A DNA stretch of 64,000 nt from Deltaproteobacteria bacterium (lineage in GTDB: Bacteria; Desulfobacterota; DSM-4660; Desulfatiglandales; Desulfatiglandaceae), in assembly GCA_029933075.1 (NCBI GenBank), contig JAOZOW010000006.1, forward strand, positions 1,080 to 65,079, written 5' to 3'. The notes below the pieces were generated by a model. That model was not told the DNA's origin. It searched no databases and saw only the letters and a program-made list of their open reading frames with translations. Shown here in pieces: positions 14,937-39,059 of the stretch. The translations under genes and the position numbers were made by a program. Positions within the stretch are counted from its first letter, which is position 1. Every line of letters starts with the position of its first letter.

Positions 14937-14943
14937 GGTAGCT

Positions 14944-17379: not shown

Positions 17380-17393
17380 GAAAATATCGCATT

Positions 17394-17630: not shown

Positions 17631-18135
17631 GGTTTTCCGCTCCTTTGAGACGGTACCTGACGTCAAGGCGCTCAAGTTCTTTCAGGACGAGGGCAATGAT
17701 ATCCTCCATCCTTTGTTTTATAGGTAATGTAAGTTCAAGCCCGACGGTTTCGATGTCTTTGGGTTCTACACCCAATATAACAGTTTCCGGCACCTTATCA
17801 AGGGCCTGGCACAGGGTGAGGGCCTCAAGGAGATCCACCTGGTGCAAGGAGTTCTTTGCCAGGATGCGTTTGGGTATGGCTTCTCCTTCGATGCGGTAAA
17901 GGTCTCCCGGTTTGCCCTTGTTTCTAATGGCGTCCACAACAATGAGGTGATCCGCCTCGGAGATGGTCCCCAAGAGATTCAGGCCAAGGACTCCCCCGTC
18001 TTCAAGGGACACATTCTCAGGAAACTCGTATCTGGCCTTCAACTCTTCAATGACACGCACACCGAAGCCCTCATCGGTGAACAGGATATTGCCGACACCC
18101 AGCACGGTGATCCTTGCTTGGTCGTTAATTTCCAT
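17593..18135 (-). CDS. NiFe hydrogenase large-subunit C-terminal maturation endopeptidase (HybD/HynC family)
   Basis: ITVLGVGNILFTDEGFGVRV motif with later HQVD and GVEP motifs. Start chosen at MEINDQ (18135). Confidence 0.85.
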   Translation of the reverse strand: MEINDQARITVLGVGNILFTDEGFGVRVIEELKARYEFPENVSLEDGGVLGLNLLGTISEADHLIVVDAIRNKGKPGDLYRIEGEAIPKRILAKNSLHQVDLLEALTLCQALDKVPETVILGVEPKDIETVGLELTLPIKQRMEDIIALVLKELERLDVRYRLKGAENHVLRDTCQDHQN

Positions 18136-18177
18136 AATATTCCTTAAACCAGTAAAGAAGAACAGGGGCATCCAATC

Positions 18178-18221
18178 AAAAAAAACCCTTCAGTCCCTCT
18201 TCAAAGAGGAACTGAAGGGTT
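18178..18221 (-). terminator. Strong intrinsic terminator or attenuator directly after the hydrogenase large-subunit gene
   Basis: On the minus strand AACCCTTCAGT pairs with ACTGAAGGGTT (11 bp; 18221-18211 with 18194-18184) and runs into a T8 tract (18185-18178) whose first two T are the stem's own 3' end. Confidence 0.7.
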
Positions 18222-18234
18222 TAGCGGAAACCTC

Positions 18235-19875: not shown

Positions 19876-19935
19876 TTTCTCCCCTCTCTTTTACTAAGGT
19901 GATTTCATTGACTCAAGATCAGGTGACTCGCCTTT

Positions 19936-20880: not shown

Positions 20881-21059
20881 TGGCACCTCCTGATGCTGGT
20901 TAACAAAAGCCCTCCTTCCCAAACTTCTTCCGGTTTCCGTGCATATGATTAAAAAATTTAAGCACTGTTTGTCAATCTTTTTTTGCAAAAAATATTGAGA
21001 AAAGGCCAACTTGGGTGATAAAAGAGTTGAAAGCGTCCGAATGGGAGTCATTTGACACG

Positions 21060-22703: not shown

Positions 22704-23531
22704 TTATTTGAAGCCCTGCTCCACCGCAGCCATGTCCAGATAGAGTGTGGCCAGGTTTTCGATCTCCATGGGGGCCACCTGTTCGAGAGCCCTCTTGTCA
22801 AGGGTCTTGATATACCTTTTGCATTTCCTGCAGAAGTCCACCCGAAAGCCTTCTTCCCCTTCAGCCAGAAAGTACCCCAAGGTGCTCTGGTCCTCGTTCT
22901 GGCAGAAGACACACTTGACCCGTGGATAGGGCCACTCCTGCCCGCACAGTTCGCAGTGTAAATACCTTTTTCCGGTCTTTGCGAAGTATGAGATGTCCGG
23001 TTCGGAGCCGCACACAGGACAATACCCATTGTCCCATTTTTCAGCCTCTATCTTGTGAGACAGCGCCTCCCGTAAGGTCTCGAACGAAGGTCTCAGGGCG
23101 GTTTGTCCCAGGAAGAAGAGGGCCTTCGGGTCCAGCCCGACATCTTTTCCCAAGAGCGATAGGGCGTTTTCGTCCTGGCCCAGGATGGCCCTGAACAATC
23201 TTTCGCACCATTGGGGCTCTGTCTCTGATTTTTCAAAGGCCGTTTTTAGCCCCTCTTTGTCGGGCCTCTCGGTGTCTTTGAGGTGTTGAAAGAATTTTTT
23301 CAGCAGCCCCGAAGCAGTCCCGAGGTCGAGCGGAAGCTCCTGCCTCGAGAAAAGAGAAAATCCCTCCTCCTGTTTGATCTCCTTGTAGGAATCGTCAAGT
23401 TCGAAAGGCTTGCTTACGGGATGTTCCCTGATCAGAAGTGCCATGAGATCTCTATAAGGCTCAAGGGCGGCCCTGGCAACCGGTCTTTGTCGAATCAGGC
23501 GCTCTATATGTTCCAAGATTTCCTCTGCCAT
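22704..23531 (-). CDS. fdhE: Formate dehydrogenase accessory protein FdhE
   Basis: Four CxxC pairs (CPVCGSEP, CELCGQEW, CVFCQNED, CRKCKRYIK) in the C-terminal half; 275 aa. Confidence 0.85.
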   Translation of the reverse strand: MAEEILEHIERLIRQRPVARAALEPYRDLMALLIREHPVSKPFELDDSYKEIKQEEGFSLFSRQELPLDLGTASGLLKKFFQHLKDTERPDKEGLKTAFEKSETEPQWCERLFRAILGQDENALSLLGKDVGLDPKALFFLGQTALRPSFETLREALSHKIEAEKWDNGYCPVCGSEPDISYFAKTGKRYLHCELCGQEWPYPRVKCVFCQNEDQSTLGYFLAEGEEGFRVDFCRKCKRYIKTLDKRALEQVAPMEIENLATLYLDMAAVEQGFK

Positions 23532-23726: not shown

Positions 23727-24482
23727 TTAACCGGCGAGCTTTTTCAAAAGCTGCCACTCTCTTGAAAGATCGCTCAAAGACTTGCCGATCTTTTTGAGGG
23801 CCATCTTCCGGTCCATAACATCTGGAGCTTTTTCCACACCGGCAAACTGGTAGTACTTGGAGGGCTCGTCTGCCAGGAGATAGAAAACCCTCAAGTCCTC
23901 CAGTCCCGTGACCTTGGCATTGGGGAATTTGGCCTTCACCTCGCCCAGGCGTTTCTTGGCGAGCGCCGCCATCTTATCCCGATCACCAAAATTCATGGCC
24001 CCGGTGGGGCAGGTCTTGACGCAGGCCGGCTCAAGCCCGTTGTGCACCCTGTCGTAACACATGGTGCATTTGGACATATAGCCGGTGCCTTTCTGCACCC
24101 GTGGAATATTAAAGGGGCAGGCCTCTATGACATCCTTTGCATTGGCCTTTTTGAGCTTGTCCGTATAAAGCACCGCCCCGGTTTCACTGTCCACTATGAT
24201 GCCGCCCGGCGCATCATCCTCGGCAGCCTCCTTGCAAGGAGGCTCGAGGCAATGACGGCATTGGTCCGGGAAGAAATACCATACCGGCTTGTTCTCAGGG
24301 CCAAGGTGCTCCTGGAATCTTACCACCTTCCAGGTAAAGAATGACAGGTCCTTGGGGTTCTGGTAACTGCCCCAGTTCTCCGTCTTTGTGGCAGGGAGTT
24401 GATTCCATTGCTTACAGGCAATCTGACAGCCCCGGCAAGCGGTACACACGGTTGTATCTATGAAGAATGCCTTTCCACTCAT
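23727..24482 (-). CDS. fdhB: Formate dehydrogenase beta (Fe-S) subunit
   Basis: MSGKAFFIDTTVCTACRGCQIACKQWN and further 4Fe-4S motifs, with no TM anchor. Located 16 nt downstream of fdhA. Confidence 0.9.
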   Translation of the reverse strand: MSGKAFFIDTTVCTACRGCQIACKQWNQLPATKTENWGSYQNPKDLSFFTWKVVRFQEHLGPENKPVWYFFPDQCRHCLEPPCKEAAEDDAPGGIIVDSETGAVLYTDKLKKANAKDVIEACPFNIPRVQKGTGYMSKCTMCYDRVHNGLEPACVKTCPTGAMNFGDRDKMAALAKKRLGEVKAKFPNAKVTGLEDLRVFYLLADEPSKYYQFAGVEKAPDVMDRKMALKKIGKSLSDLSREWQLLKKLAG

Positions 24483-24497: not shown

Positions 24498-27400
24498 CTA
24501 TGCCTTTTTTATGTTGACCATAAAGGCCTTGGTTTCAGGGATCCTGGTGTTAGGATCGCCCGTTGACGGAGTGAGCAGGTTGGCTGAATCGCCGCCATCC
24601 TTCGGGTAGACCCATCCGAAGTGCCATGGCAGCCCCACCTGGTGAACCACGCTTCCCTGTATCTTGAAGGGACGGAAGCGATGGGTCACAATCGCTTTCG
24701 CCTTCACTTTGCCGCGGGCGGATTCCACGATCACCCATTCACCATTATTAATGCCTTTGAGCTTTGCCAGTTCATGGCTCAACTCCACAAAGAGCTGTGG
24801 CTGGGCTTCCAAGAGCCAGGGTTGCCACCTGGTCATGACCCCCGTCTGCCAGTGCTCGCAAACCCGGTATGTGGTCGCCACAAAAGGATACCGGGGATCG
24901 CATGTCCTGTACACATCCATGTCGGTCCCATATTTGGGCGCCGTGGGGTTGACGAGCTGGCTGGACATGAGGTTCTTTTCCACCGGGCATTCCATGGGCT
25001 CATAGTGCTCGGGGAAAGGCCCGTCCGCCCTGCCCGGGCCGAACACGTGGGCATGGCCCTCCGGCTTCATGATAAAGGGGTACTTGGTCTTGGGGTTGGG
25101 GGTCCCATCAGGCTTCAGCATAGGAGGCCACCCGCCGTCTGGCACGTCCCCGACCCATCCGCCTTTTCCACCTTTGGCGTTGGGATCCCAGCGGATAACC
25201 GGATGCTCCGGATCCCAGGGCTTGCCATATTTATCCACCGATGCGCGATTATAGATAATGCGCCGATTCACGGGCCAGCACCAGGCCCATTCAAGATTGA
25301 GACCGATACCGGACTTCTCCCTTTTCCTTCGAGCCGACATGTTCCCCTTATTTGTGTACGAGTTACAGTAGAGCCAGTTGCCGCTGCTGGTGGAACCATC
25401 GGCCTGGAGATAGGCAAAACTGGGAACCAGGTCTCCCTTCTTAAAGGATTTGCCCTTGACCGTGACATTTTTCAGAAAATAGCCGTTGATTTCCTTGGCC
25501 ACCTTGTGCGGGTCATATGCCCCTTTGGTGGTGTAGTCCCACTTCAGGTTAAGGATAGGCTCAGGAAACACAGCGTTTTTGTCTCTGCGGTACAGGTATT
25601 TGACCTTCTTCATCAGGTCCATGATGATGTCGCCATCCGACTTTGCATCCCCTGGCGGTTCCGCAGCCTTGTAACGCCACTGCATCCAGCGACCGCTGTT
25701 GGTGATGGACCCCTCTTTTTCCAGCGACACGGCGCAGGGAAGGAAGAAGACCTCGGTTTTGATCTTCTTGGGATTCATGCCGGGACCCTTCCAGAACCAG
25801 CCCGTCTCGTTGGGGAAGATGTTTACGTTGACCATCCAGTCCAGCTTGGCCAGGGCCTTTCTGTTTTTATCGGCATTGGCCCCTGAGGCTGCAGGATTCT
25901 GGCCCCATGCAAAGAAGCCGGTGAATTCCCCCCTGTACATGGCGTCAAAGAGATCAAGCCAAGAATAGATCTTGCCGTCATCCAGCTTGGGCAGCCAGCT
26001 ATAGCCAAAGTCATTCGCCTTGGTCGCCTTGTCTCCGAAGAATGATTTGAGAAGGCTTACCGAGTACTTGGGGTAATTTCCCCACCAGTTGGCGCTCAGG
26101 GGATCGTGGGTCACGGGCGTGTATTTCTTATTGTAAGCGGCAAGCGTGGCCTGGGATGCCCTGGGCGTTTTCAGGTAGCCGGGCCAGATGTGGAAGAGGA
26201 TGCAATGGTCCGTTGAGCCCTGGACATTGGACTCGCCCCTGAGGGCGTTTACCCCGCCTCCGGCCACGCCCATGTTGCCGAGCAGCAATTGGATCATGGC
26301 CATGGTGCGGATGTTCTGGACTCCCACTGTGTGCTGGGTCCATCCCATGGCGTACATGATCGTACCGGCCTTGCCCTTCTTCCCGGTGGCCGAGTACATC
26401 TCGTAGACCTTTTTGAGGTCTTCTTTCGGTGTCCCCGTGATGGCCGAGACCGTATCGAGATCATAGCGGCTATAATGTTTTTTCAGTAATTGAAAGACAC
26501 AACGGGGGTCCTGCAAGCTCCGATCCTTCTTTGGAATCCCTTTTGAATCTTTCACAAAGGCCCACATCTTTTTGTTGTATTTGTGGGTCTTTGGGTCATA
26601 ACCGGAGAAAAGACCGTCCTTGAAATCATAGGTCTCCGCCACGATAAACGGGGCGTTCGTATACTCAGCCACGTACTCTTTGAAGTACTTGTCGTTTTCG
26701 ATGATGTACTTGATCATACCCCCTAAGAAGGCGATATCCGTGCCTGATCTCAGATAGGTGTAGAAGTCGGCCTTGGAGGAGGTGCGGGTGAATCGGGGAT
26801 CAACGCTGATCAGTTTGGCCCCCCGCTTCATGGCCTCGTTCACCCATTTGAAGGAAATGGGGTGATTTTCGGCCGCATTGGAGCCCATAATAAGGATGCA
26901 ATCGCTGTTCCGGATATCGATCCAGTGATTGGTCATTGCGCCGCGTCCGAACGACTCTGCCAGAGCCGCAACCGTGGCGCTGTGTCAGATACGGGCCTGA
27001 TGCTCTATATAGACCAGACCGAGGGCCCTCATCATTGCCTGGATCAGCCAGCACTCCTCATTGTCCAGAGCGGCACTTCCCACTTCGGCAATGCCGTTAG
27101 TGCGGTTGACCACCTGGCCTTTGTCATTCTTCCGGGTAAAGCTGGCATCGCGGCTCTTCTTGATCCTTTTTGCTATGGTGAACAGGGCCCAGTCCCAGGA
27201 TACCTTTTGCCAATGGCTGCTGTAAGGCGCCCGATAAAGAGGCGTCGTTACGCGATTTTCATTATTGACGAGTTGACTCAGTGCAGCGCCTTTGGCACAG
27301 AGGGCCCCCTCATTTATAGGATGATCGGGGTCTCCCTCAACGTTGATGATCTTTCCTGCTCCTGCCTTCCCGGTATGTGCGATGACCCCGCAGCCAACGG

Positions 27401-27560
27401 CGCAATAACAACATATACTTGTTGTCTCTTTGGCAAACCGGATCTTCAGGGTTTGGGCGTAAGACCTGACAGGCTTCAAGTCGAGGCCCAATCCCATGGC
27501 GGCAACGCCAGCGGCAGAAGCTCCTGCGATTTTCAGAAAACCACGACGCGTAACGTTCAT
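24498..27560 (-). CDS. fdhA: Periplasmic selenocysteine-containing formate dehydrogenase alpha subunit (Mo/W-bisPGD)
   Basis: MNVTRRGFLKIAGASAAG Tat signal and CCYCAVGCG 4Fe-4S motif. ORFs 26985..27626 and 24498..26936 join in frame through TGA 26987-26985, giving the canonical EHQARI-U-HSATVAALAESFGRGAMTNHW. Confidence 0.93.
26952..26968 (-). promoter_or_regulatory. Candidate SECIS hairpin for fdhA
   Basis: mRNA CGGCUCU-GGC-AGAGUCG: 7-bp stem with one G-U pair, starting 16 nt after the UGA. Confidence 0.45.
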
Positions 27561-28074
27561 GGGGCCTCCTTTCTCTTGAGGGTTGTTAACAACAAACAAT
27601 GTCATCGCTATCTGAAACCCGAACACTTAAGAATTTCTTTTTCTTTGATTATCACCTCCCGCAGCCTGAAGTTTTGGTGGATATGAGTTTCTTCTTTGAA
27701 GGTTAACCGCCAATGATATGAAGGGAATTTTCATGTTGGGGGTGAATAATGACGGTAAGCACTCTTAAAAAAATTTTTATCCATAAAAATCCCGGTTTTG
27801 TCAACCGTTTTTTCCTGTCTATTTTTTGGAAAATCAGCCACTTACATATATCAAAAATGACATAACCATATTAACCTTTCTCTTTCCAGGCGCTCCTCCG
27901 GGGCATTTTTATCCCTAAAACCTCCTGCTGGAGGTTCATTTCTGTTGCAAAATGGCTATAATGTAGTTACAATATAGTTATTTCTGTCCGGATTGGGCCT
28001 GAGGAGAAATACGTATCGGGGTCTTGGAAGAAGATCCCAGGCCCACCCGGCCATCTTCCGGGGAGGAAAAGTCC

Positions 28075-28470
28075 ATGTCAGAGGAGATAAGGGGCGCCGT
28101 ACTGGTGGTGGGAGGGGGCATTGCTGGGATGCAATCCGCTCTGGACCTGGCTGATTCCGGGTATTACGTGTACCTGCTTGAAAAAAGCCCTTCCATTGGT
28201 GGAGGAATGGCACAATTGGATAAGACCTTTCCCACCAATGATTGCGCCATGTGAATCATTTCTCCAAAACTGGTCGAGGTCGGCCGGCACAGAAACATTG
28301 AGTTGATCACTTATGCAGATCTTGAGTCCGTGGAGGGGTCTGCCGGAGATTTCAGGGTCCGGATCAAGAAACGTGCGCGCAGCATTGATATGAATCTGTG
28401 CACCGGATGCGGCAATTGTATCGAAAGCTGTCCTGTGACAAACAGGCCCGTTTCCGCTTCACCGCCATAA
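28075..28470 (+). CDS. HdrA N-terminal fragment (FAD-binding half of the thioredoxin-reductase-like domain plus first Fe-S motif of the inserted ferredoxin domain) with Sec
   Basis: GGGAGG RBS. Sequence [29 protein letters not shown]...[21 protein letters not shown](28252-28254)[23 protein letters not shown]...[13 protein letters not shown], with stop at 28468-28470. The TGA sits at the DCxxC position of HdrA. Confidence 0.75.
28270..28287 (+). promoter_or_regulatory. Candidate SECIS hairpin for the hdrA fragment
   Basis: CUGGUC-GAGGUC-GGCCGG: 6-bp stem including two G-U pairs and a GGU-containing loop, starting 15 nt after the UGA. Confidence 0.4.
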
Positions 28471-28483
28471 TCCTGAATTATCC

Positions 28484-29026
28484 ATGTTTGAGCCATTAGG
28501 GGGCGGAGGAGAGTTCTCCCCCCGGATAAGAGAATGGGACGACATGCAAGCACCTTTTGAGATCCGATTGGAAAAGATCGAAGAGATAATTGAAAAGTAT
28601 CATGGAGATCGCGAGGCCCTGCTCATGATCTTGCAGGATATCGCCGACATCCACAATTATGTGCCTCCCGAGGTGGTACCCCTCCTTGTGGAGAGACTGG
28701 GCGTCAGGCCGAGCCTGATTTACAGCGTGGCTACTTTTTATAAGACCATCAGCCTGGAGCCCAGGGGAAAGTATGTCATCAACGTCTGTACTGGTACCGC
28801 CTGCCATGTTAGAGGGGCTGACAAGATCATGGAGGCATTAAAAGAAAAGCTCGGGATCGATGAAGGTGAGACCACGGAGGATCTGAAATTCACCCTGGAG
28901 GCCGTGCGGTGCGTGGGCTGCTGCGCCTCCGGGCCGGTGATCACCGTAAATCGGGAAACGCACGGCGGGCTTGACCGCTCCAGTGCCCTGAAGATCATTG
29001 AATCGTATGAGAAGGAGATCTCCTGA
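28484..29026 (+). CDS. NuoE/HoxE-like [2Fe-2S] thioredoxin-fold subunit
   Basis: CTGTACHVRGA...CVGCCASGPV cysteine pattern. The start is uncertain: ATG 28484 or ATG 28544. Confidence 0.85.
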   Translation: MFEPLGGGGEFSPRIREWDDMQAPFEIRLEKIEEIIEKYHGDREALLMILQDIADIHNYVPPEVVPLLVERLGVRPSLIYSVATFYKTISLEPRGKYVINVCTGTACHVRGADKIMEALKEKLGIDEGETTEDLKFTLEAVRCVGCCASGPVITVNRETHGGLDRSSALKIIESYEKEIS

Positions 29027-29060
29027 CCCCCGGGTTCCCATAAGAAGCAACGACTGAACT

Positions 29061-30911
29061 ATGGCCACCTTAAAGAACAGTGAATCTCTGGACAGGCTCA
29101 GAGAATCCCTAAAAGAGAGAGGGGAGAGAGGCGCGCGATTGGTGTCCTTATGCGCCGGCTCCGGCTGTGCCGCCTATGGGACGGGAAGGGTCTACAGGGC
29201 CCTTAAAGAGGAACTTGCCCGGCAGGGGATGGAGGGAGATGTGGAGGTAAAGCTCACAGGGTGCCATGGGTTTTGTGAGAAGGGGCCCATTATGGTTCTC
29301 CACCCCGAAGGTTTTTTCTACCCTCAGGTCAAGGAAGAACAGATCCCCGAGATCGTGGAAAAAAGCATTAAGGGGGGAGAGTTGATCGAGAGCCTGGTCT
29401 TCAAGGACCCTGTAACGAAAAAGATGATTCCCTATGAGCGAGATGTCCCCTTTTACAGGCTGCAGCAGCGGATAATTTTCGGCAATAATGGGATCATCGA
29501 TCCCACCAATATTGAGGATTACATTGCCGTGGGCGGCTACAGTGCCCTGCAGAGAGCCCTGTTCGAGATGACCCCGGAGGAGATCATCGAGGAAATAAAG
29601 CGCTCTGGATTGCGGGGCCGAGGGGGGGGAGGTTTTCCTACGGGGATCAAGTGGGAGAGCTGCAGGCGGCATGAGGGAGAGCGGTATGTGATCTGCAATG
29701 CTGACGAAGGCGACCCGGGTGCCTATATGGACCGCAGCCTCCTTGAGGGCAACCCCCACAGCGTGGTGGAAGGGATGATTATCGGCGCCGTTGCCATCGG
29801 TTCCCGTGAGGGGTACGTGTATGTAAGGCATGAGTATCCCCTGGCCGTCAAGAACCTGACGAAGGCCCTGGAGGCGGCTGAGGAATACGGCCTCCTGGGC
29901 AGGGATATCCTCGGCTCAGGCTTTGATTTTGAGATCCGGATCAGCCGCGGCGGCGGGGCCTTTGTGTGCGGCGAGTCCACCGCGCTCATGGCTTCCCTGG
30001 AAGGGAACCCCGGGCGACCGAGGGCCAAGTATGTCCATACAGTGGCGCGGGGTTTCCGACAGAATCCTTCCAATCTGAATAATGTGGAGACCTGGGCCAA
30101 TGTGCCTGTCATCATCAACAGGGGAGCGGATTGGTATGCCTCCATAGGCACGGAGAACAGCAAGGGCACGAAGATATTCTCGCTGGTGGGGAAGGTTGTC
30201 AATACCGGTCTGGTGGAAGTGCCCATGGGCACGAGCCTCAGAACCATCATTTACGATATCGGCGGTGGAATTCCCAAGAAGAAACAATTTAAGGCGGTGC
30301 AGACGGGCGGACCCTCCGGGGGCTGTATTCCCGGACAATTTCTGGACTTAGGCGTTGACTTTGACGAGCTTGCAAAGGTGGGCTCCATGATGGGCTCTGG
30401 CGGAATGATCGTGATGGACCAGGATACCTGCATGGTGGATGTGGCCCGCTATTTTCTGGATTTCTTGAAGGAGGAATCATGCGGCCAGTGCACTCCCTGC
30501 CGCGAGGGGATCAAGCAGATGCTGGAGATCCTTACAAACATCTGTGAAGGACACGGCAAAGAAGGAGATATAAGTCTGCTTGAAGAGCTGGGCGGCATGG
30601 TCAAGAAGTTTTCCCTGTGCGGGCTGGGGACCTCCGCCCCGAATCCGGTGCTGACCACCATCCGGTATTTTAGGGATGAATACGAAGCGCACATCAGGGA
30701 TAAAAGATGCCCCGCTGGGGTCTGCAAGAACCTCTTTCACTACGAGATAGACCCCGATACGTGCACCGGCTGCCGTCTTTGTGCCCTGAAGTGCCCTCAA
30801 GGGGCCATCAGCGGTGAAAAAAAGAAACCTCACAAACTGGACCAGGACAAATGTATCAAGTGCGGGGTCTGCTATGACGCCTGCAAATTCGGTGCGGTGC
30901 TGATCAAGTAG
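29061..30911 (+). CDS. NuoF/HydB-like NAD(H)-binding FMN flavoprotein with N-terminal 2Fe-2S domain and C-terminal 2x[4Fe-4S]
   Basis: [23 protein letters not shown] motif, [13 protein letters not shown]3-cluster motif, and C-terminal [12 protein letters not shown] and [11 protein letters not shown]. Confidence 0.9.
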
Positions 30912-30972
30912 CCTCCTGTGGGTTCGAGCCTGTGGAGAGATCGAAGATGGAAATGCTCGAGGGAAATCGTCC

Positions 30973-33900
30973 ATGATCACTTTCAAACTCAATGGCCGCG
31001 AGGTTCAGGGAGAAGAGGGGGAATACATCCTTGAGGTGGCCGAGAGATACGGGGTGGAGATCCCCACCCTTTGCCATCACAAGGCCTTAGAACCGGCGGG
31101 TGCGTGCAGGCTCTGCACGGTGGAACTCTTCGACGGGCGCAGGACCCGCTTCGTCACCGCTTGCAACTATCCCATCTGGGAAGGCATGGAGGTCTATACG
31201 GATACCGATGAGGTGCGAAGGGGGCGCAAACTGATCGTGGAGCTTCTCCTGGCCCGGTGCCCTGAAGTCCCCATTATCAGGAGACTGGCGGAGGACTACG
31301 GCATTGAGGAGCCCCGATTCAAGAAAGATGAAGATGACTGCATCCTCTGCGGGCTTTGCACCCGCATTTGCGAAAGGATGGGAAACGGGGCCATCAGCCT
31401 CGCGGGAAGAGGCGTGGGCTTGAAGGTGACTACGCCTTTCGAGATCCAGTCGGATCTATGCATGGCCTGCGGGGCCTGTGTCTCGGTCTGCCCCACAGGA
31501 CATATCAAGCTGGAGGAGATCACCAAGCACACGGTTAAACCCATACCCTCCGAGTATGATATGGGGTTGAGAGGACGAAAGCCCATCTATGTGCCCTATG
31601 CCCAGGCTGTCCCCAACACGCCTGTGATTGACCGAGACACCTGCATGCACTTCAGGACAGGGGAATGCAAGATATGTGTACAGTCGTGCAGCGCCGGTGC
31701 CATCGACCACGCCCAGCAGGATGAAGCGATAGAGTTGCGCGTGGGCGCTATTATCTTGGCCCCCGGTTTTCAGGCCTTCGACCCTGGCCGGTACGAAGCT
31801 TACGGCTATGCCGAAAACCCGAATATCGTCACTTCCATGGAATTTGAGAGGCTTCTGTCAGCATCAGGCCCAACAATGGGACATCTTGTGAGGCCTTCGG
31901 ACGGAAAGGAACCCAGAAGGATCGCCTGGGTGCAATGTGTGGGCTCCAGGGACGTCCACCGCTGCGACAATGCTTATTGCTCCTCCGTGTGTTGTATGTA
32001 TGCCGTAAAACAGGCGGTGATCGCAAAGGAACATGCCGGAGGCGAACTGGACTGCGCCATTTTCTACATGGATATGCGCACCCATGGCAAAGACTTCGAG
32101 AGGTATTACAATGACGCCAGGGATAAGCATGGAGTACGCTTCATCCGTTCGCGGATCCCCGCCATTGAGACGGTGAAGGAGACCGGAGAACTTCTGGTGC
32201 CTTATGTGAATGAAAAGGAACGGGTTGTGGAGGAGCGGTTTGACCTGGTTGTCCTTTCTGTGGGTCTGGAGACCGCTGCCGAGGTGGTGGAACTTGCAAA
32301 GAAGCTGGGTGTGCAGCTGACGGAAGGTCGATTCTGCAAGACCGATCCGTTCCGTCCGGTGGCCACTTCCAGGGAGGGCATCTTTGTCTGCGGCGCCTTC
32401 CAGGGGCCTAAGGACATTCCCCAGTCAGTGATCGAGGCCGGCTCCGCAGCAGCCGAGGCAGGGGCCCTGCTGAGTGAAGGTAGAAACAGCCTTACCCTGA
32501 CCAGGGAGGAGCCGCAGGAGCGGGACTGCCGTGGAGAGAGGCTCCGGGTGGGGGTGTTTGTATGTCGTTGCGGGATCAATATCGCCGGCGTGGTGGACGT
32601 GGAAGCAGTACGGGACTATGCCGCATCCCTGCCCCATGTGGAGTATGTGGCTGACAACCTTTACACCTGTTCCCAGGATACCCAGGAGAGCCTCACGGAG
32701 GTGATCAAGGAGAAAAACCTGAACAGGATCGTGGTGGCGGCATGCACCCCCAAGACCCACGAGGCCCTTTTTCAGGAAACCATGGCCAATGCGGGGTTGA
32801 ATAAGTACCTGTTTGAAATGGCCAATATTCGAAATCAGGATTCCTGGGTGCATCAGGAAGACCCGGAGGCCGCCACGGCCAAGGCCAAGGATCTGGTCCG
32901 CATGGCTGTGGCCAAGGTGACCCTTTTGGAGCCCCTCCGGGAGGCGGAACTTGAGGTCAACCAGAAGGCACTGGTGGTAGGGGGAGGGGTCGCCGGGATG
33001 ACGGCTGCCAGGGCCCTTTCCGCCCAGGGATATGAGGTCTGCCTTGTAGAGCGGGCTCAGTCACTCGGGGGGCAGGCCCGCAACCTGTACCGCATGTGGA
33101 CCGGGGAGAATATCCAGGAGAGACTCGAGGAGCTTATAGAAGCGGTGCAGGGAGATGAAAACATCAGGGTCCACTTAGAGACCGAGTTAGGCAATGTAGA
33201 GGGTTTTGTAGGCAATTTCAGGACCACCCTGATTTGTCGGGGCAAGGAAGAGGTGGTGGAGCATGGTATTGCCGTCATTGCCACCGGCGCACAGGAGCTC
33301 AAGCCCAAGGAATACCTCTATGGAGAGGATTCCAGGGTGGTCACCCACCTTGAACTGGACCGGATGTTCATGAATGATGAATCCGCTCTCAGGGGAATCA
33401 AGAGGGCGGTGTTCATTCAGTGCGTGGGATCGAGGGAACCCGAAAGACCTTATTGCTCCAGGGTCTGCTGTACCCACTCGATCGAGAGTGCCCTCCATTT
33501 GAAAGAATTGAACCCGGATATGGATGTCTATATTCTTTATCGGGATATCCGGACTTATGGCGAGCGGGAATATCTATACCGAAAAGCCCGCCTTGCCGGC
33601 ATCCTTTTCATCCCTTTTTCTCTGGAGCGGAAGCCCCGGGTCTCATTGGGACAGGGAGCGCTGAAGATAGATATCTGGGACCCTTTGCTTTGCCAGGATA
33701 TTGTCATGAACTCCGACCTCCTGGTTCTGGCCGCCGCCATTGTCCCTTACGGGGATCAAAAATTGGCCCGAATGTTCAAAGTTCCCCTCAATGAGGATGG
33801 ATTTTTTGTGGAAGCCCATGCCAAGTTAGGGCCTTCGGAGTTTGCCACGGATGGGGTTTACCTGTGTGGCATGGCCCATTATCCCAAGCCCATTGATGAA

Positions 33901-34206
33901 TCCGTAGCCCAGGCCCAGGCCGCGGTTTCCCGCGCCGTGACACTGCTGGCCAGGCAAAAAATCAAGACGAGCGGCACTGTTGCTGAGGTCAATCCCCTTT
34001 ACTGCAGCAGCTGCGGGGTGTGCGTGGAGGTCTGCCCCTATAAGGCCCCGACCATGCGTGAACAGGGGCCTTTTGCGGGAAAGGCGGAGGTGAATCCGGT
34101 GCTGTGCAAGGGCTGTGGAATCTGTGTGGCCTCCTGTCGCTCAGGGGCCATGAGCCTGAAAGGGTTCGGCAATGATCAGATCATGGCTATGATCGCCCAT
34201 ATGTGA
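30973..34206 (+). CDS. 1077-aa fusion: NuoG-like 2Fe-2S plus 2x[4Fe-4S] N-terminus, C-terminal half of an HdrA module, then a second HdrA-like module
   Basis: [11 protein letters not shown]...[15 protein letters not shown] (2Fe-2S), then [12 protein letters not shown] and [12 protein letters not shown]. Next [18 protein letters not shown]...WVQCVGSRD...[10 protein letters not shown], the HdrA region that follows the inserted ferredoxin. Then [14 protein letters not shown]...VAACTP (HdrA N-domain), [15 protein letters not shown], and C-terminal [12 protein letters not shown] and [11 protein letters not shown]. Confidence 0.85.
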
Positions 34207-34274: not shown

Positions 34275-34706
34275 ATGCACGACTGGCAACCTAAAATCAC
34301 CGCTTTTTTGTGTCACTGGTGTAGTTACGGTGCGGCGGATCTGGCTGGTGTCAGCCGCCTTCAATATCCGCCAAATTTCAGAATAATCCGGGTGCCGTGC
34401 TCCGGCCGAGTGAGCCCCAAATTCATCCTGGCCGCCTTCCGTCACGGGGCCGACGGCGTTTGGGTGAGCGGGTGACATCCGGGCGACTGTCATTACCTGG
34501 AAGGTAATTATTATGCCAGGCGAAAATTTGTGCTTTTGAAAAATCTCTTGGAGCACATTGGCCTGGAACCGGGAAGGCTTCATTTCTCATGGATTTCTTC
34601 TGCCGAGGCCGCCAAGTTTGTGGAAGTTGCCAATGAGGTTAACCAAGTGGTGGAGGAACTGGGACCTGCGAGATTCCTCGTGAAACGAAAAGCCCGGGTG
34701 GCATGA
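34275..34706 (+). CDS. mvhD: MvhD/FlxD-like [2Fe-2S] protein with Sec
   Basis: [18 protein letters not shown]...VPCSGRV...[12 protein letters not shown](34473-34475)[14 protein letters not shown]. The TGA replaces the Cys of the G-C-x-x-G-x-C-H-Y motif. Same frame throughout; stop at 34704-34706 overlaps the next start (ATGA). Confidence 0.8.
34492..34508 (+). promoter_or_regulatory. Candidate SECIS hairpin for mvhD
   Basis: AUUACCU-GGA-AGGUAAU: perfect 7-bp stem (or 6 bp with a UGGAA loop), starting 16 nt after the UGA. Confidence 0.45.
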
Positions 34707-35656
34707 TGCTACATTATACGGAAAAAATCAGAGAGATCGCCGGGAGACTCCTGAAACAGGGGGTGGTGGACGTATTTATCGGCTACAGGAAGGGCTCGGT
34801 CCCCATGATGAATAATCCTTTATTGATTAGGGATCCCGGCAGCACGGATCTCCTTTACTGGGACAGCAATTGTGCGCTGAACCTTTGCAATTATTTGACA
34901 GGGAGGAAGGACAGGATCGGGATTGTGGCCACCGGTTGCGTTTCAAGAAATATCGTCACCCATATAGTTGAAAACCAGATCAGCCGCTCCCAGCTCTATG
35001 TAGTCGGGATCCCATGCACGGGGATGATAAGCCACAGGGCAGTGATAAGAGCGGTGGGCGGGAGGGAAATCATCGAATTTGAGGAACAGGGGGAGCGATT
35101 CCTGGTACGCGGGCGGGATTTTGAAGAGATATTTGAAAAGAATGATTTCCTCCAAAGCAATTGCGCCGTGTGCAGATATCCCAATCCGGTGCTGTACGAC
35201 GAGATGTTGGGAGAGCGTGTGCCGGGATATGAAGGGGACGATGTCTACAGGGACGTGGAAAAGGTGGAGCAGATGAGCAGTGAGGATAGGCGTGGCTTTT
35301 TCTCGCGCATGATCTCCCGCTGTATTCGTTGTTATGCCTGCAGGGATGCCTGTCCTTTATGTTATTGCCCCACCTGTTTTGTGGATGAATCGCGGCCCCA
35401 GTGGGTGGGGAAAAGCATAGACCCTGTGGACACAATGACCTTTCATCTGCTGCGGGCCTTTCACTGTGCCGGCAGGTGTACGGATTGCGGCGCATGCGAG
35501 CGTGCCTGTCCCATGGGTATCCCGGTCAGGCAGTTTACCAAGAAACTCAACAAGGACGTCCAGGAGCTGTTTTCCTGGGAGGCGGGGCTCGGCCTGGAGC
35601 AGAGGCCCCCCTTGGATGTGTACAGGCAGGATGACTACGACGGTTTTATTCGATGA
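34703..35656 (+). CDS. Fe-S protein, FlxC-like (AsrA / sulfhydrogenase-beta paralogue)
   Basis: CIRCYACRDACPLCYCPTCF and CTDCGACERACP motifs; 317 aa; translationally coupled on both sides. The B versus C assignment is tentative. Confidence 0.6.
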   Translation: MMLHYTEKIREIAGRLLKQGVVDVFIGYRKGSVPMMNNPLLIRDPGSTDLLYWDSNCALNLCNYLTGRKDRIGIVATGCVSRNIVTHIVENQISRSQLYVVGIPCTGMISHRAVIRAVGGREIIEFEEQGERFLVRGRDFEEIFEKNDFLQSNCAVCRYPNPVLYDEMLGERVPGYEGDDVYRDVEKVEQMSSEDRRGFFSRMISRCIRCYACRDACPLCYCPTCFVDESRPQWVGKSIDPVDTMTFHLLRAFHCAGRCTDCGACERACPMGIPVRQFTKKLNKDVQELFSWEAGLGLEQRPPLDVYRQDDYDGFIR

Positions 35657-36693
35657 CGGCCTATAGAGTATACAGCAAGGAGGAATGGACCAGTGCAGTG
35701 AAGGCCCTGGAGTCTCACTATCAGGTATTTGTGCCCGTAAAGGATGGGGATTTTCATCTATTCGGCCTTCTTTCGGAGGGCAAGAGGCCGGATTTTGATT
35801 TTCAAAATACGCACCTTTCTCCCAAGTCCATCGTATATCCCCAGTCGGAGCGCATGTTCGAGTACAGTCTGGACGGAGAGGACCCTGACGCCCACATGCT
35901 GAAAGAAGCGCCAAAGGATTTTTCGCCCAGGGCCATCGTCGGCATCAGACCTTGTGATGCCTTGGCCTTTCAAAGGGTCAGGGTCAATTTCGACACCCCC
36001 CGGTACCGGGACCCCTGGTGGGTGAGCCGGTTCGAGTCCACCACCTTTGTGGGTTTGGGCTGCAATGCCCCTGAGGCCACCTGCTTTTGCACCTCGGTAG
36101 GCGGCGGCCCCTTCAGCGAAGCGGGTCTGGACGTGTTACTCTACGACTTGGGAGACCGCTTCCTGGCCAAGGTGCTCACCTCCAAAGGGGATGGCCTTTT
36201 GAAGAAAGCCCTGGGGGGAATGGAGGCGGATGGTACTTTGGTGCGACAGGCAGAATCACTGGCACTCAAGGTGACAGAGGCCATGCCGGCCGTTGTTCCA
36301 GTTGATGGTTTGAAAGACAAATCAGTACTGGAACTATTTGAGGCGCCTTTCTGGGAGGATGTGGCTTTTGGCTGTATCAACTGCGGCACCTGCACCTATC
36401 TCTGTCCCACCTGCTGGTGCTTTGACATACAGGACGAGGTGCTGGGAAAGTCGGGGGATCGTATTCGCAACTGGGATTCCTGCATGTTCCCCCTGTTTAC
36501 CCTGCATGGATCAGGACACAACCCAAGGGGCGGGAAGGTGGCGCGGGTACGCCAGCGCTTCATGCACAAGCTGAAGTATTATTTGGACAAGTATAACGAA
36601 GGAGTTCAGTGTTCGGGCTGCGGGCGCTGTGTGCGCTCCTGTCCCGCAAATATTGATATCCGGCAGGTAGCCGAACTCATGAACAGTCTATGA
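35653..36693 (+). CDS. Fe-S protein, FlxB-like (AsrA / sulfhydrogenase-beta-like)
   Basis: CINCGTCTYLCPTCWCFDIQDE and CSGCGRCVRSCP motifs; 346 aa. Confidence 0.65.
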   Translation: MTAYRVYSKEEWTSAVKALESHYQVFVPVKDGDFHLFGLLSEGKRPDFDFQNTHLSPKSIVYPQSERMFEYSLDGEDPDAHMLKEAPKDFSPRAIVGIRPCDALAFQRVRVNFDTPRYRDPWWVSRFESTTFVGLGCNAPEATCFCTSVGGGPFSEAGLDVLLYDLGDRFLAKVLTSKGDGLLKKALGGMEADGTLVRQAESLALKVTEAMPAVVPVDGLKDKSVLELFEAPFWEDVAFGCINCGTCTYLCPTCWCFDIQDEVLGKSGDRIRNWDSCMFPLFTLHGSGHNPRGGKVARVRQRFMHKLKYYLDKYNEGVQCSGCGRCVRSCPANIDIRQVAELMNSL

Positions 36694-37556
36694 GTAAGCG
36701 AGCCCGTATGACCCTCGACAACCCATATTTACCCTATCCGGTGCGCATCGAGCAGATCGTGACCGAGACCGAGGACGGCAATCTCAAGACCTTCCGTCTT
36801 GTATTCTTGAATCCGGAGCACGAGGAGAAGTTTCGCTATATGCCGGGGCAGTTCGCCGAGCTTTCCATTGCGGGGAAGGGCGAGATTCCTATCGGCATTG
36901 CTTCTTCTCCCACCGAGAGAGGGTTTTTGAGTTTTACGGTGAACAGAGTAGGGGTGGTGACCGCCCATCTCCATAACATGAAGGAGGGAGATGTGATGGG
37001 AGTCAGGGGTCCGCTGGGAAACTGCTACCCCTGGGACGAGATGGAGGCAAAGAATGTGGTCATCATCGGCGGGGGCTTTGCCTTTACCACCCTGAGATCG
37101 AGCCTTGTATATCTCCTTGACCCCCAAAACCGCTCCAGGTTCAAGGATGTCATCGTGGTCTATGGGGCCAGGAGCCCGGGCATGCTTCTTTACAGAGATG
37201 AACTCTGGCAGTGGGAAAAGCGGGACGACCTCCAGATGCATGTGACCGTCGATGCCACGGATGATCCTGACTGGAAACACCACACAGGATTTGTCCCCAC
37301 CATTGTAAAAAAGGTGGTCCCATCCTCGGACAGCTCGGTGGCCTTGGTGTGCGGCCCCCCTGTTATGATCAGAAACACCCAACCTGTGCTGGAAGACTTG
37401 GGGTTTCCGCCCGAGAGGGTCTTTTTGTCCCTTGAGATGCGCATGAAGTGCGGCATAGGCATGTGCGGCAGATGCAATATCGGAGATCAATATGTGTGCA
37501 AGGACGGCCCCGTATTCTCTTTGGCCCAGCTCAAAGAGATGCCCCCGGAGTACTGA
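36690..37556 (+). CDS. FAD/NAD(P)H-binding [2Fe-2S] oxidoreductase, FlxA-like (AsrB / sulfhydrogenase-gamma / PyrK fold)
   Basis: FNR-like fold (RYMPGQF, VVIIGGGFAFTTL) with C-terminal CGIGMCGRCNIGDQYVCKDGPVF. Confidence 0.75.
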   Translation: MSKRARMTLDNPYLPYPVRIEQIVTETEDGNLKTFRLVFLNPEHEEKFRYMPGQFAELSIAGKGEIPIGIASSPTERGFLSFTVNRVGVVTAHLHNMKEGDVMGVRGPLGNCYPWDEMEAKNVVIIGGGFAFTTLRSSLVYLLDPQNRSRFKDVIVVYGARSPGMLLYRDELWQWEKRDDLQMHVTVDATDDPDWKHHTGFVPTIVKKVVPSSDSSVALVCGPPVMIRNTQPVLEDLGFPPERVFLSLEMRMKCGIGMCGRCNIGDQYVCKDGPVFSLAQLKEMPPEY

Positions 37557-37592: not shown

Positions 37593-38102
37593 GTGACTGT
37601 GAGCAAAATCGACCTTGATCAAGCGGATGCAGGCTTCAAAAAGGAATTGATGTCCCAGCCGGGTGGAGAGATGATCTCGGCCTGCTTCATGTGTCGCACC
37701 TGCGTGGCGAGCTGTCCCATATCCGCCGTGAATGATAGATTTCACCCCCTCAGGATCATTCGCATGGCCCTTTACGGACTCAAGCATGAGGTCCTGAGAA
37801 GTGAATTCATATGGCTTTGCTCCAGTTGCTATGCCTGCCAGGAGAGGTGCCCCCAGGGCGTCAGCATCACCGAGTTCATGACACTGCTCAAGAACTTGGC
37901 TGTAAAGGAAGGCCATATGCCTACGGGGATAAGGGCGCAACTGGACCTGGTAAAAGGGCAGGGCCGAATTTATCCCCTGGACGATTTCGACAACAAGAAG
38001 CGCGGGAAGGTGGGACTTCCGCCTCTGCCAACTTCATGCGATGTTGTGCAAAAGCTGTTTCCAGCGGAAGTTGAGGATAAGGGGCCCTCAGGCCGAGGAT
38101 AG
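37593..38102 (+). CDS. hdrC: Heterodisulfide reductase subunit C-like
   Basis: CFMCRTCVASCPIS and CSSCYACQERCPQG motifs; GTG start; 169 aa. Confidence 0.8.
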   Translation: MTVSKIDLDQADAGFKKELMSQPGGEMISACFMCRTCVASCPISAVNDRFHPLRIIRMALYGLKHEVLRSEFIWLCSSCYACQERCPQGVSITEFMTLLKNLAVKEGHMPTGIRAQLDLVKGQGRIYPLDDFDNKKRGKVGLPPLPTSCDVVQKLFPAEVEDKGPSGRG

Positions 38103-38162: not shown

Positions 38163-39059
38163 ATGACGACAATGAGATATGCACTGTTTTTGGGATGCAC
38201 CATTCCCGCCAGGTCCAGGAACTATGAGCTTTCCGCAAGGCATGTGGCCGGCAAGCTGGGTATTGAGCTGGTGGACGTGGAGGAATTCGCATGTTGCGGA
38301 TTCCCCATCAAGGCCAGTGACCGCAAGGCCTCTGAATTAATGGCCGCATATAATCTGTCGCTGGCCGAAAAGCGGGGCCTGGATCTCCTGACCCTTTGCA
38401 GCTCATGTTCTTCAGCCCTTACAGAAGCGGCACACAGCCTGGAGACCGGCGGTGCCCTGCGAGGACATGTCAATGATGCACTTGCAAGGGTAGGGCTCCA
38501 CTACCAGGGCCGGGCCAGGGTGAGACACTTTGCCCGGGTCCTTTTTGAAGAAGTGGGCGCGGAGAAGATTGCACAATATTTGGAAAGGGATTTGAAGGGT
38601 CTCAAGGTCGCAGTCCATTACGGATGCCACTACCTAAAACCATCTGAAATCTATGACCGTTTTGATTCCGTTGAAATCCCTGAGACTATTGAAACCCTTG
38701 TTGCCCTGACCGGTGCGGAGGTGGTGGACTATCCGGGCAAAAAGCTGTGCTGTGGAGGGCCGGTGCTCCCTGTAGATGAGAAGGTAGCCATGGCCGTGGC
38801 AAAAGAGAAACTTGACAATATTGTAGATGCAGGTGCCGATGCCATGTGCTTGGTATGTCCTTTCTGTTCGGTAATGTATGACGGTAACCAGAAAAGCATC
38901 GAATCGGAATATCAGAAGAGCTACAGGCTCCCTGTGCTTTACCTGACCCAGATCTTGGGCCTGGCAATGGGGTTTGATCGCAAGGCCCTTGGCCTGAACA
39001 TGAATGTGGTCAAGACAAAGGAACTTCTTGCCCCTTTTTTTGGTAAAGGATCAGCTTAA
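38163..39059 (+). CDS. hdrB: Heterodisulfide reductase subunit B-like (two CCG domains)
   Basis: EEFACCGFPIKA and KKLCCGGPVLP CCG signatures; 298 aa. Confidence 0.85.
   Translation: MTTMRYALFLGCTIPARSRNYELSARHVAGKLGIELVDVEEFACCGFPIKASDRKASELMAAYNLSLAEKRGLDLLTLCSSCSSALTEAAHSLETGGALRGHVNDALARVGLHYQGRARVRHFARVLFEEVGAEKIAQYLERDLKGLKVAVHYGCHYLKPSEIYDRFDSVEIPETIETLVALTGAEVVDYPGKKLCCGGPVLPVDEKVAMAVAKEKLDNIVDAGADAMCLVCPFCSVMYDGNQKSIESEYQKSYRLPVLYLTQILGLAMGFDRKALGLNMNVVKTKELLAPFFGKGSA

Follow-up and report, generated by a model that had tools for sequence, protein, structure and literature searches.

Anaerobes are known to split electron pairs by four routes that yield very low-potential reductant, and two of these use HdrA-type and HydBC/Bfu-type modules, respectively. 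In this study, we analyzed a stretch of 64,000 nucleotides from a Deltaproteobacteria bacterium (contig JAOZOW010000006.1; hereafter the window), in which an hdrA gene is divided within its inserted ferredoxin domain and genes resembling nuoE and nuoF occupy the break. The closest described system is the class II benzoyl-CoA reductase (BCRII). Cryo-electron microscopy of BCRII from Geobacter metallireducens showed that a tandem HdrA, BamE, works with a HydBC-like module, wherein the NuoE N-terminal bundle touches the BfuA homologue; the occurrence of HdrA-type and HydBC-type modules in one complex was presented as unprecedented (preprint 10.64898/2026.04.10.717634). BamE is a fused HdrA dimer in whose first flavin domain the bifurcating FAD is found along with the Cys pair and the inserted ferredoxin domain, while its second flavin domain (TrxR2) is structural and non-bifurcating (preprint 10.64898/2026.04.10.717634). 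Interrupted HdrA proteins are also known. HdrL of Desulfobacterium autotrophicum belongs to a class of about 1480 residues with an insert (PMC2702500), the 1487-residue HdrA of HdrL type from Moorella thermoacetica oxidizes NADH (PMC9430772), and the HdrA of ANME-1 has a similar interruption with an NfnB-like insert (PMC9012536). Neighborhoods of nuoEFG, mvhD and hdrA were noted in a genome paper, where the split went unnoticed (PMC4046663). We consider it likely that the locus in the window encodes an oxidoreductase of several subunits with flavin and iron-sulfur centers, in which a Bfu-type module is spliced into the inserted-ferredoxin loop of a tandem HdrA, so that the flavin site and the ferredoxin domain are formed from two polypeptides.

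All genes of the locus lie on the plus strand. The first one (28075–28470, 131 codons) specifies the N-terminal portion of flavin domain 1 of HdrA and is preceded by a GGAGG ribosome-binding site at 28062–28066, read directly from the sequence, with a spacing of 8 nt to the ATG. The small protein carries the beta-alpha-beta unit for FAD binding with GGGIAG, the Cys57/Sec60 pair (DCAM-U, where U is selenocysteine, Sec) and the first CxxCxxCxxxCP of the inserted ferredoxin domain; a TAA stop follows 10 residues past the segment containing this motif. It aligned without gaps to residues 146–258 of 5ODC_A (E 5e-45) and residues 142–256 of 8RVV_A (E 7e-48), and it covered positions 138–256 of the NCBIfam HdrA2 profile. 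The profile resumed at position 257 within the 1077-residue product of the large gene (30973–34206), behind a NuoG-like N-terminus with one 2Fe-2S and two 4Fe-4S sites. Residues 191–515 of the large protein (31543–32517) continue HdrA flavin domain 1 and correspond to 5ODC_A residues 245–517 and HdrA2 positions 257–580, the profile match itself extending over residues 191–520; a match to HdrA residues 245–517 was also obtained for residues 155–454. The initial annotation had described the small gene as a contiguous HdrA block whose continuation reappears inside the large protein with genes of NuoE and NuoF type in between, and the translation, the structure alignments and the profile bear this out.

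The break passes through the inserted ferredoxin domain. Its motif 1 (C109–C119) is on the small protein, and its motif 2 (C224-x7-C232-x2-C235-x3-C239) is on the large protein; all eight cysteines of this divided domain are conserved in relatives. Flavin domain 1 of the large protein also holds WVQCVGSRD, the CSSVCC cluster site and Lys346, which aligns with Lys409 of 5ODC_A; a lysine at this place lies at the flavin N5 position (preprint 10.64898/2026.04.10.717634). C224, C232, C235, C239, Lys346 and CSSVCC are invariant in 49 homologues. The small and large proteins scored 164.5 and 815.5 bits, respectively, against the HdrA2 cut-off of 1100, so neither qualifies as a single-polypeptide HdrA; across the two genes, however, the GxGxxG and DCxxC/U motifs, the inserted 2x[4Fe-4S] domain, and CSxVCC with its lysine are all found. 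A chimera of small-protein residues 1–122 and the large protein from residue 177 onward was colinear with unsplit homologues, including the unusual C-x7-C-x2-C-x3-C motif, and this alignment placed the break 2–3 residues past the CP of the first cluster motif. Given these uninterrupted homologues and the colinear chimera, the proposal that an NADH-dehydrogenase module was inserted into hdrA at the gene level is supported. Compared with MvhADG-HdrABC (5ODC, 8RVU), the window HdrA shares GxGxxG, DCxxC/U, both inserted-ferredoxin motifs, CSxVCC and the Lys409-aligned lysine, but it is permuted, duplicated, encoded by two genes and accompanied by other partners.

The genes in the break were called nuoE-like and nuoF-like in the initial annotation, which Pfam supported (PF01257, PF01512, PF10589) and structure matches refined. 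The first (28484–29026) encodes a HydC/NuoE/BfuC-like [2Fe-2S] thioredoxin-like subunit (PF01257, E 1e-49; NCBIfam NuoE/HoxE families). The second (29061–30911) encodes a HydB/NuoF/BfuB-like FMN and NAD(H) subunit of 616 residues (PF01512, PF10589, PF01257, Fer4), with an N-terminal 2Fe-2S domain, an FMN/NADH core and a C-terminal 2x[4Fe-4S] domain. It matched the bifurcating enzymes 7T2R_B (7e-244), 9MQX_B (2e-240) and 8A6T_B (5e-231) from end to end, whereas respiratory NuoF covered only residues 137–549. Judged from these comparisons, the pair belongs with HydC/HydB (Bfu) and not with respiratory Nuo. The third component is the BfuA/NuoG-like head of the large protein (residues 1–180, 30973–31512; Fer2_4, Fer4_7/Fer4_21), for which 9MQX_A, the BfuA of a bifurcating tungsten aldehyde oxidoreductase, gave the best match among solved structures (E 2e-43). 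Its cysteines, which would bind one [2Fe-2S] (C34, C45, C48, C64) and two [4Fe-4S] clusters (C123–C133, C163–C173), are invariant in 49 homologues, and there is no His-ligated cluster. The head ends in CPTGHIKLE about 10 residues ahead of the HdrA continuation; thus its last cluster should be near the rebuilt ferredoxin domain. The domain and structure matches therefore cover BfuB, BfuC and a BfuA head. As in the Bfu family (9MQX, 7T2R, 8A6T), full-length BfuB and BfuC homologues are present, and the head is limited to one 2Fe-2S and two 4Fe-4S clusters, as passages of the Bfu survey describe for BfuB clade 45 (PMC9304861). What differs is that the window BfuA head is fused to three quarters of HdrA, and many relatives fuse BfuC to the other quarter. 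In text passages and one supplementary file of that survey, no Hdr-fused Bfu type besides Bam-Bfu was found, and these passages name HdrA only where Bam-Bfu is treated (PMC9304861).

The rest of the large protein is a second HdrA-like module in permuted order, with the HdrA "N-terminal" domain between the two flavin domains. This domain (residues 516–655, 32518–32937) aligns to HdrA structure residues 2–130. It is followed by the second flavin domain (residues 656–1000, 32938–33972), which aligned to HdrA structures and has GGGVAG and CSRVCC; it has neither the Cys/Sec pair nor an inserted ferredoxin domain, and Glu838 replaces the lysine of domain 1. The protein ends with a C-terminal 2x[4Fe-4S] ferredoxin domain like that of HdrA (residues 1001–1077 and stop, 33973–34206; Fer4_9). 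In segmental matches, residues 521–756 corresponded to the HdrA N-terminal domain and the beginning of the second flavin domain without DCxxC, and residues 903–1074 to the HdrA C-terminal part including its ferredoxin domain. An HdrA N-terminal domain and a DCxxC-less flavin module had been predicted here; the structure alignments agree, and the scaffold can now be specified. By its domain order, and with a Sec-containing mvhD-like gene on its 3' side, the scaffold that was split is a tandem HdrA of the BamE type rather than a classical HdrA, BamE being compared by description only.

The same basis applies to the comparison with BCRII, in which BamE, BamF, BamD and BamGHI have counterparts here: a Sec-containing MvhD-like adaptor, an HdrBC-like partner, and a HydBC-type module with a short three-cluster BfuA homologue. 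Both systems combine two different bifurcation-type modules. However, BamE is one polypeptide, BamI is a separate subunit feeding the C-terminal ferredoxin domain, and the inserted domain of BamE contacts BamBC. In the window, by contrast, the inserted ferredoxin domain covalently encloses the BfuA-like domain, two genes together encode flavin domain 1, HdrC, HdrB and Flx-like proteins have separate genes, and tungsten BamBC is missing: among 40 window open reading frames (ORFs) scanned with Pfam, none was of the aldehyde ferredoxin oxidoreductase (AFOR) family. A role in benzoyl-CoA reduction was considered and dropped, as there is no gene of the aldehyde oxidoreductase type and the context consists of DsrMKJOP-like, hydrogenase and formate dehydrogenase genes. 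Known families account for every component of the locus. BCRII already has the tandem scaffold, a Sec-containing MvhD-like protein and a pairing with HydBC-like proteins, and HdrL-type proteins already have an insertion at the inserted-ferredoxin loop.

Codon 60 of the small gene is a UGA (28252–28254) in the column of the second Cys of the HdrA DCxxC pair. Among 73 homologues, this column has TGA in 56 and a Cys codon in 17, one further row (L078) being omitted as misanchored. At 28270–28287, 15 nt after the UGA, is an 18-nt hairpin of the selenocysteine insertion sequence (SECIS) type, CUGGUCGAGGUCGGCCGG, with a 7-bp stem and an AGGU loop. Its nucleotides are identical in 56/56 TGA-type genes, whereas the 17 Cys-type genes have a degenerate version; the mean minimum free energy is -10.6 and -6.5 kcal/mol, respectively (Mann-Whitney p = 9e-7). 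Single-sequence folding after the small-gene UGA did not differ significantly from shuffled sequences (z = 0), and the hairpin had no Rfam match; it is the comparison of the 56 Sec-type with the 17 Cys-type genes that establishes it. The hallmarks of a bacterial selenoprotein gene, an in-frame UGA at a Cys-homologous column and a SECIS hairpin on its 3' side, are therefore found here, and the Sec codon, hairpin and ribosome-binding site reported in the initial annotation are intact. Public annotation lists the gene only as a fragment of 59–66 residues ending at the UGA, which is the usual truncation of gene callers at this codon. By the substitution rates given below, the small gene is a selenoprotein gene under strong purifying selection. 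Metabolic models built from genomes overlook that flavin domain 1 of the large "HdrA" needs the small protein.

We mapped the parts of the locus by tblastn onto 80 genomic loci in which a relative of the large protein is encoded, which revealed three architectures. In the unsplit form, a single ORF of 1004–1030 residues (one outlier, 1089) contains the equivalent of the small piece, the continuation, the N-domain, flavin domain 2 and the ferredoxin domain, in this order. The HdrL-type form (13 loci) is a single ORF of about 1480 residues, in which an insert of about 500 residues lies between the small-piece equivalent and the continuation. This insert consists of Fer4_20 and Pyr_redox_2, is GltD/NfnB-like and lies in the same loop; it is present in paralogous loci such as L035 and L058, while the window has the NuoE/F/G-like module instead. 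HdrL-type proteins and the window locus thus share the tandem scaffold and the loop that hosts a pyridine-nucleotide flavoprotein module, but the former have one GltD/NfnB-like domain in a gene that stays a single ORF, and the latter has a three-protein HydABC-like module and a split host gene. Because a GltD/NfnB-like insert in the same loop belongs to an NADH-oxidizing protein in M. thermoacetica, the loop appears to be a recurrent socket for pyridine-nucleotide modules.

The split form, with a NuoG-like head, was found in 24 loci from Desulfatiglandales and Desulfobacterales and from metagenome-assembled genomes (MAGs) of Thermodesulfobacteriota, Spirochaetales and Planctomycetota. The small HdrA piece is upstream of nuoE in 22/22 of these loci with enough upstream DNA; the remaining two (L007 and L018) end at a contig edge at nuoE. 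Where the small gene is free-standing (n = 18), its frame ends 4–20 residues past CP and at least 2 beyond the conserved CPV/CPI. The Sec position is TGA in 17 split loci and the window, and Cys in four (L017, L050, L054, L073). Against the window gene, dN was 0.05–0.29 with dS saturated, and the median pairwise dN/dS was 0.055. Independent assemblies agree in gene order and break point, and some of their contigs span several megabases (L001, 8.2 Mb; L002, 3.4 Mb; L010, 4.2 Mb). As judged by this comparison of genomes, the split arrangement is a working enzyme design, conserved, widespread and under selection, and not a broken gene. The initial annotation had argued that the small gene is not decaying and had named a fragment that is absent or degraded in orthologous loci as what would count against this; instead, the fragment was kept in every informative locus, with an invariant SECIS.

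Natural fusions connect the pieces further. In L050, L054 and L062, the small piece runs into NuoE as one ORF of 290–304 codons; in L073, the two are in frame with no stop between them, and the end of the ORF was not located. The deep-branching relatives with this fusion also have the NuoG-like domain fused to the HdrA continuation. The L054 fusion as a database query retrieved more than 120 clusters at 90% identity (246–356 residues, query coverage 85–100%). Nearly all have the FAD-binding, Fer4 and 2Fe-2S_thioredx Pfam domains, a few being N-terminally truncated and without the FAD part, and the named ones are labeled "NADH:ubiquinone oxidoreductase subunit E" or a close variant. For example, in L082–L084 the fusion is followed by a NuoF-like gene, a gene for a NuoG-like head on tandem HdrA (1069–1138 residues), mvhD and three Flx-like genes. 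Searching residues 1–330 of the large protein against 1.8 billion representative proteins gave about 17 clusters at 50% identity with the junction of the NuoG-like head and HdrA. One of them, the metagenomic protein P0259 (660 residues), contains the small piece, an acidic linker of about 30 residues, the NuoG-like domain and the continuation in one chain, with 58% and 49% identity to the window proteins in the small piece and the continuation, respectively. Its AlphaFold2 model had a mean predicted local distance difference test score (pLDDT) of 84 and a predicted template modeling (TM) score of 0.80, with low confidence in the linker, the Cys-pair loop and residues 311–315. In whole-chain Foldseek comparisons with HdrA cores, the target-normalized TM score was 0.93 for 8RWN_A and 0.92 for 6TJR_A, and the middle domain matched BfuA of 9MQX. 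The fusions and the complete modeled HdrA fold with a NuoG-like excursion support the view that both pieces work as one unit, and with it the earlier claim that the flavin domain needs two polypeptides.

Several observations stand beside these. The L082–L084 fusion is preceded by hdrA-mvhD-metV(DUF5981)-metF(MTHFR) and a small Fe-S gene, these genes lying at about 4150–18600 in each locus, and folate and corrinoid genes are near the NuoE-fused system in L083; this context is that of methylene-tetrahydrofolate (THF) reductase of the Wood-Ljungdahl pathway, not of sulfate reduction. On the contig of P0259 (JGI 3300042731, 20.8 kb), the neighbors are a Fer4_11 protein and a 625-residue AFOR-family protein, which resemble BamC and BamB, as well as short-chain dehydrogenases and a separate 562-residue Pyr_redox_2 and Fer4 protein. 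From these neighbors, that locus may encode an aryl-CoA-reductase-like system and another way of cutting a tandem HdrA. Another protein, P0269 (706 residues), combines a NuoG-like head, a single non-tandem HdrA continuation, the C-terminal ferredoxin domain and a fused MvhD domain, so the junction of NuoG-like head and HdrA occurs on an HdrA2-like, non-tandem scaffold too.

Three other readings of the small gene were weighed. That assembly or sequencing errors produced the split, or that recoding (bypass, trans-splicing) restores one HdrA chain, is exceedingly improbable: we found nothing in its favor, the order and break recur in independent assemblies including the multi-megabase contigs, the genes in the break are intact, conserved HydC/HydB homologues, and the translated junctions have no intein or bypass features. 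A decaying pseudogene fragment left by a rearrangement would agree with the short public annotation and with the presence of unsplit paralogues in the same clade, adjoining in L030. Such a fragment, however, would hardly be kept in 22/22 informative loci over several orders and phyla at a dN/dS of about 0.05 with saturated dS, with 18/18 free-standing frames ending within the same 4–20 residues, and with a Sec codon, an invariant 18-nt hairpin and a ribosome-binding site; we regard this reading as very improbable. The small ORF might instead encode an independent FAD/Fe-S protein or a regulatory or assembly factor that does not dock, leaving the domain-1 remnant of the large protein as a cofactor-less relic. 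In favor of this, the small and large proteins are only predicted to associate, and degenerate HdrA modules do exist, as the second flavin domain of BamE is thought to be mainly structural (preprint 10.64898/2026.04.10.717634). Yet the small piece alone makes up about one quarter of the thioredoxin-reductase fold and half of the ferredoxin fold, and the complementary catalytic features of the large protein (C224, C232, C235, C239, Lys346, CSSVCC) are invariant. Covalent fusions join the piece to NuoE and, in P0259, to the NuoG-like head and HdrA, where the modeled fold is a complete HdrA core, and the split-specific signature described below spans the small piece and large-protein residues 191–330 jointly. 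An independent small protein is therefore unlikely to a high degree, if less so than the other two.

We return to the split HdrA with its Bfu-type module and propose the following mechanism. The small chain has the FAD-binding loop together with the Cys/Sec pair, and the large chain has the lysine, CSSVCC and the remaining fold; by non-covalent docking, the two would restore a single FAD site and a single 2x[4Fe-4S] ferredoxin domain. Cluster motifs of the clostridial type have the usual 3+1 ligation. Since the two motifs are on different chains, each cluster would take cysteines from both. The Bfu module would form a giant loop insertion, held by NuoE-NuoF-BfuA contacts as in HydABC and BamGHI. 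Electrons would pass between the NuoF-like FMN site, which would use NAD(H) and probably ferredoxin too, and the HdrA flavin by way of the BfuA-like clusters and then the rebuilt inserted-ferredoxin clusters; ferredoxin would probably be coupled through the C-terminal domain of the NuoF-like subunit. In classical Hdr, the inserted ferredoxin domain reduces free ferredoxin (PMC9012536; preprint 10.64898/2026.04.10.717634), and in BCRII it feeds BamBC (preprint 10.64898/2026.04.10.717634). Because this arm serves such partners elsewhere and the same loop holds an NADH-oxidizing module in HdrL-type proteins, the module of NuoE, NuoF and NuoG-like head may be the dedicated partner of the inserted-ferredoxin arm. 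The other flavin arms would connect to HdrCB, with a protein or small-molecule disulfide beyond it, and to the Flx-like NAD(P)H module, the latter through the MvhD-like adaptor with its Sec residue. The sulfate-reducer context (DsrMKJOP-like complex, NiFe(Se) hydrogenase, Sec-containing formate dehydrogenase) indicates that DsrC is likely the thiol/disulfide partner of HdrCB.

A different mechanism with the same anatomy is that the module provides plain, non-bifurcating NADH input in place of ferredoxin or Flx; the system would then simply be an NADH:disulfide (DsrC) oxidoreductase, and its one flavin might or might not bifurcate. L001 and L002 would fit it, as neither Flx nor MvhD genes lie near their set of small gene, nuoE, nuoF, large gene, hdrC and hdrB; NuoF homologues also occur in non-bifurcating enzymes (PMC5861303), and the HdrL-type insert at the same site oxidizes NADH in M. 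thermoacetica (PMC9430772). On the other hand, the full HydB/BfuB architecture is kept, with the N-terminal 2Fe-2S and the C-terminal 2x[4Fe-4S] domain, the latter being the external-ferredoxin site in BamH (preprint 10.64898/2026.04.10.717634), and the nearest solved relatives of the NuoF-like protein are all bifurcating. Plain NADH input seems somewhat unlikely to us. Some points also weigh against the bifurcating split HdrA that we favor. In BCRII, it is the C-terminal and not the inserted ferredoxin domain that receives electrons from the BfuA homologue, so the covalent linkage is the only basis for the route proposed here. As mentioned, NuoF homologues are not always bifurcating (PMC5861303). 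The partners vary among loci (HdrCB only, Flx only, or MetFV nearby), so the physiological reaction may not be uniform. The structural support comes from P0259, a homologue of 49–58% identity, and not from the window proteins. For the large protein alone, AlphaFold2 with a 49-sequence alignment gave a mean pLDDT of 69, with 25–35 at residues 119–264 and all Fe-S domains poorly modeled; Foldseek with this model returned HdrA structures, and the prediction is uninformative on the split, either way. The architecture is described here from genes, sequence comparison and models.

It is tentatively possible that these systems represent a widespread and undescribed class of two-stage bifurcating machines, in which a Bfu module is hard-wired to the low-potential arm of HdrA by a wiring unlike that of benzoyl-CoA reductase, the link running through a ferredoxin domain in which each of the two [4Fe-4S] clusters is ligated by both chains. 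Such a class would go back to a piece of an operon that became inserted into a gene, and it would serve sulfate reducers (Hdr/Flx/Dsr) as well as Wood-Ljungdahl organisms (MetFV). A split hdrA enclosing a nuoEF/Bfu-type module was not found in the literature searched, which did not include the review of Appel et al. 2021, where an earlier mention is possible; fusions of HdrA pieces to NuoE or to a NuoG-like head were likewise not found in that literature. In the window locus, its 24 split relatives and the more than 120 NuoE-fused clusters, two modules are joined covalently at a defined HdrA socket, which gives a testable rule for rewiring HdrA modules to new electron partners. The locus also appears to show that, in nature, two chains can together make up a flavin site and a 2x[4Fe-4S] domain. 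It is a candidate redox link from NADH/ferredoxin to DsrC in complete-oxidizing sulfate reducers and, in Spirochaetales-like MAGs, to methylene-THF reductase.

As for its origin, the arrangement most likely arose by in-frame insertion of a nuoE-nuoF-nuoG-like cassette into the loop-coding region of hdrA, to judge from the present gene structures. Such an insertion predicts the two fusions observed, small piece to NuoE and NuoG-like head to HdrA, with NuoF free between them. The fused forms branch deepest in both neighbor-joining trees. From these trees we infer that insertion and fusion came first and that fission followed, the small piece having been separated from NuoE later in the window lineage. 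For the small piece and for large-protein residues 191–330, the nearest neighbor of a split sequence was also split in 23/23 and 22/23 cases; beyond about residue 330, such pairs dropped to 9–14 of 23. The limitation of the architecture signature to these parts indicates that the 5' cassette was inherited as a unit. The drop suggests that recombination or gene conversion with tandem paralogues of the unsplit and HdrL types has exchanged or homogenized the 3' ~750 codons, beyond a boundary at about residue 330. A monophyletic split form over the whole core was rejected, because the tree of residues 231–1077 interleaves all three architectures. In the comparison with L001–L081, the part beyond the boundary (large-protein residues ~330–1077) corresponds to window positions ~31960–34206. 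In the uncultured Desulfobacterium sp. TRIP AH-1 (L030, 5126–17845), a split copy is followed by an unsplit copy and then by mvhD and Flx-like genes, and the cores of the two copies are mutual nearest relatives in the tree.

A further observation concerns the genes in the break. Among L001–L020 and L030, the nuoE/nuoF identity to the window is bimodal (about 44–48%/60–67% versus 65–72%/70–80%), and L011 is mixed (nuoE 68%, nuoF 62–67%). Identity of the large protein does not run parallel to it: L001 and L002 belong to the low group, although their large proteins are the closest ones. The pattern hints that Nuo-like genes may have been swapped between loci.

Downstream of the large gene is a gene for an MvhD/FlxD-like [2Fe-2S] adaptor (34275–34706; NCBIfam VhuD, E 8e-40). 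It has an in-frame UGA at 34473–34475 in the context GVWVSG-U-HPGDCHY and is hence listed as two ORFs. The 63 nt from this UGA onward fold into a hairpin whose energy is not significant (z = 0.1). The gene is kept 3' of the large gene in most loci compared. It is followed by a FlxC/B/A-like trio identified by Pfam and NCBIfam domain composition: an Fe-S protein (34703–35656), a Fer4_22 protein resembling the sulfhydrogenase beta subunit (35653–36693), and a protein with FAD- and NAD(P)-binding domains and a 2Fe-2S site (36690–37556). The order of the three genes is conserved in both split and unsplit loci. The names FlxA/B/C are putative and given by domain composition alone. In FlxABCD-HdrABC of Desulfovibrio vulgaris, HdrA is reportedly single and unsplit, and a HydBC-like module is absent. 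Like the window, this system combines an MvhD-like, two Fe-S and one FAD/NAD(P)-binding gene with hdrA, hdrB and hdrC in a sulfate reducer, a likeness in domain composition only. The locus ends with hdrC (37593–38102; TIGR03290, E 4e-32) and hdrB (38163–39059; TIGR03288, E 6e-81; two CCG domains), which in L001 and L002 come straight after the large gene. A scan for promoters and terminators gave results at chance level.

Directly past hdrB is an ORF of 1589 residues on the minus strand (39592–44361), for which Pfam gave no match at E <= 1e-5. On the other side of the locus, the minus strand encodes the catalytic subunit of a formate dehydrogenase with a twin-arginine translocation (Tat) signal (24498–27626), listed as two ORFs split by its Sec codon (UGA 26985–26987, EHQARI-U-HSATVA); FdhB (23727–24482) and an FdhE-like gene (22704–23531) adjoin it. 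The region 10939–21051 has three ORFs (Nitrate_red_gam, Fer4 and NrfD proteins) that indicate a DsrMKJOP-like membrane complex and, upstream of the formate dehydrogenase, the genes for both the large and the small subunit of a NiFe(Se) hydrogenase. Together with the Hdr locus, these genes form an energy-metabolism island typical of sulfate reducers.

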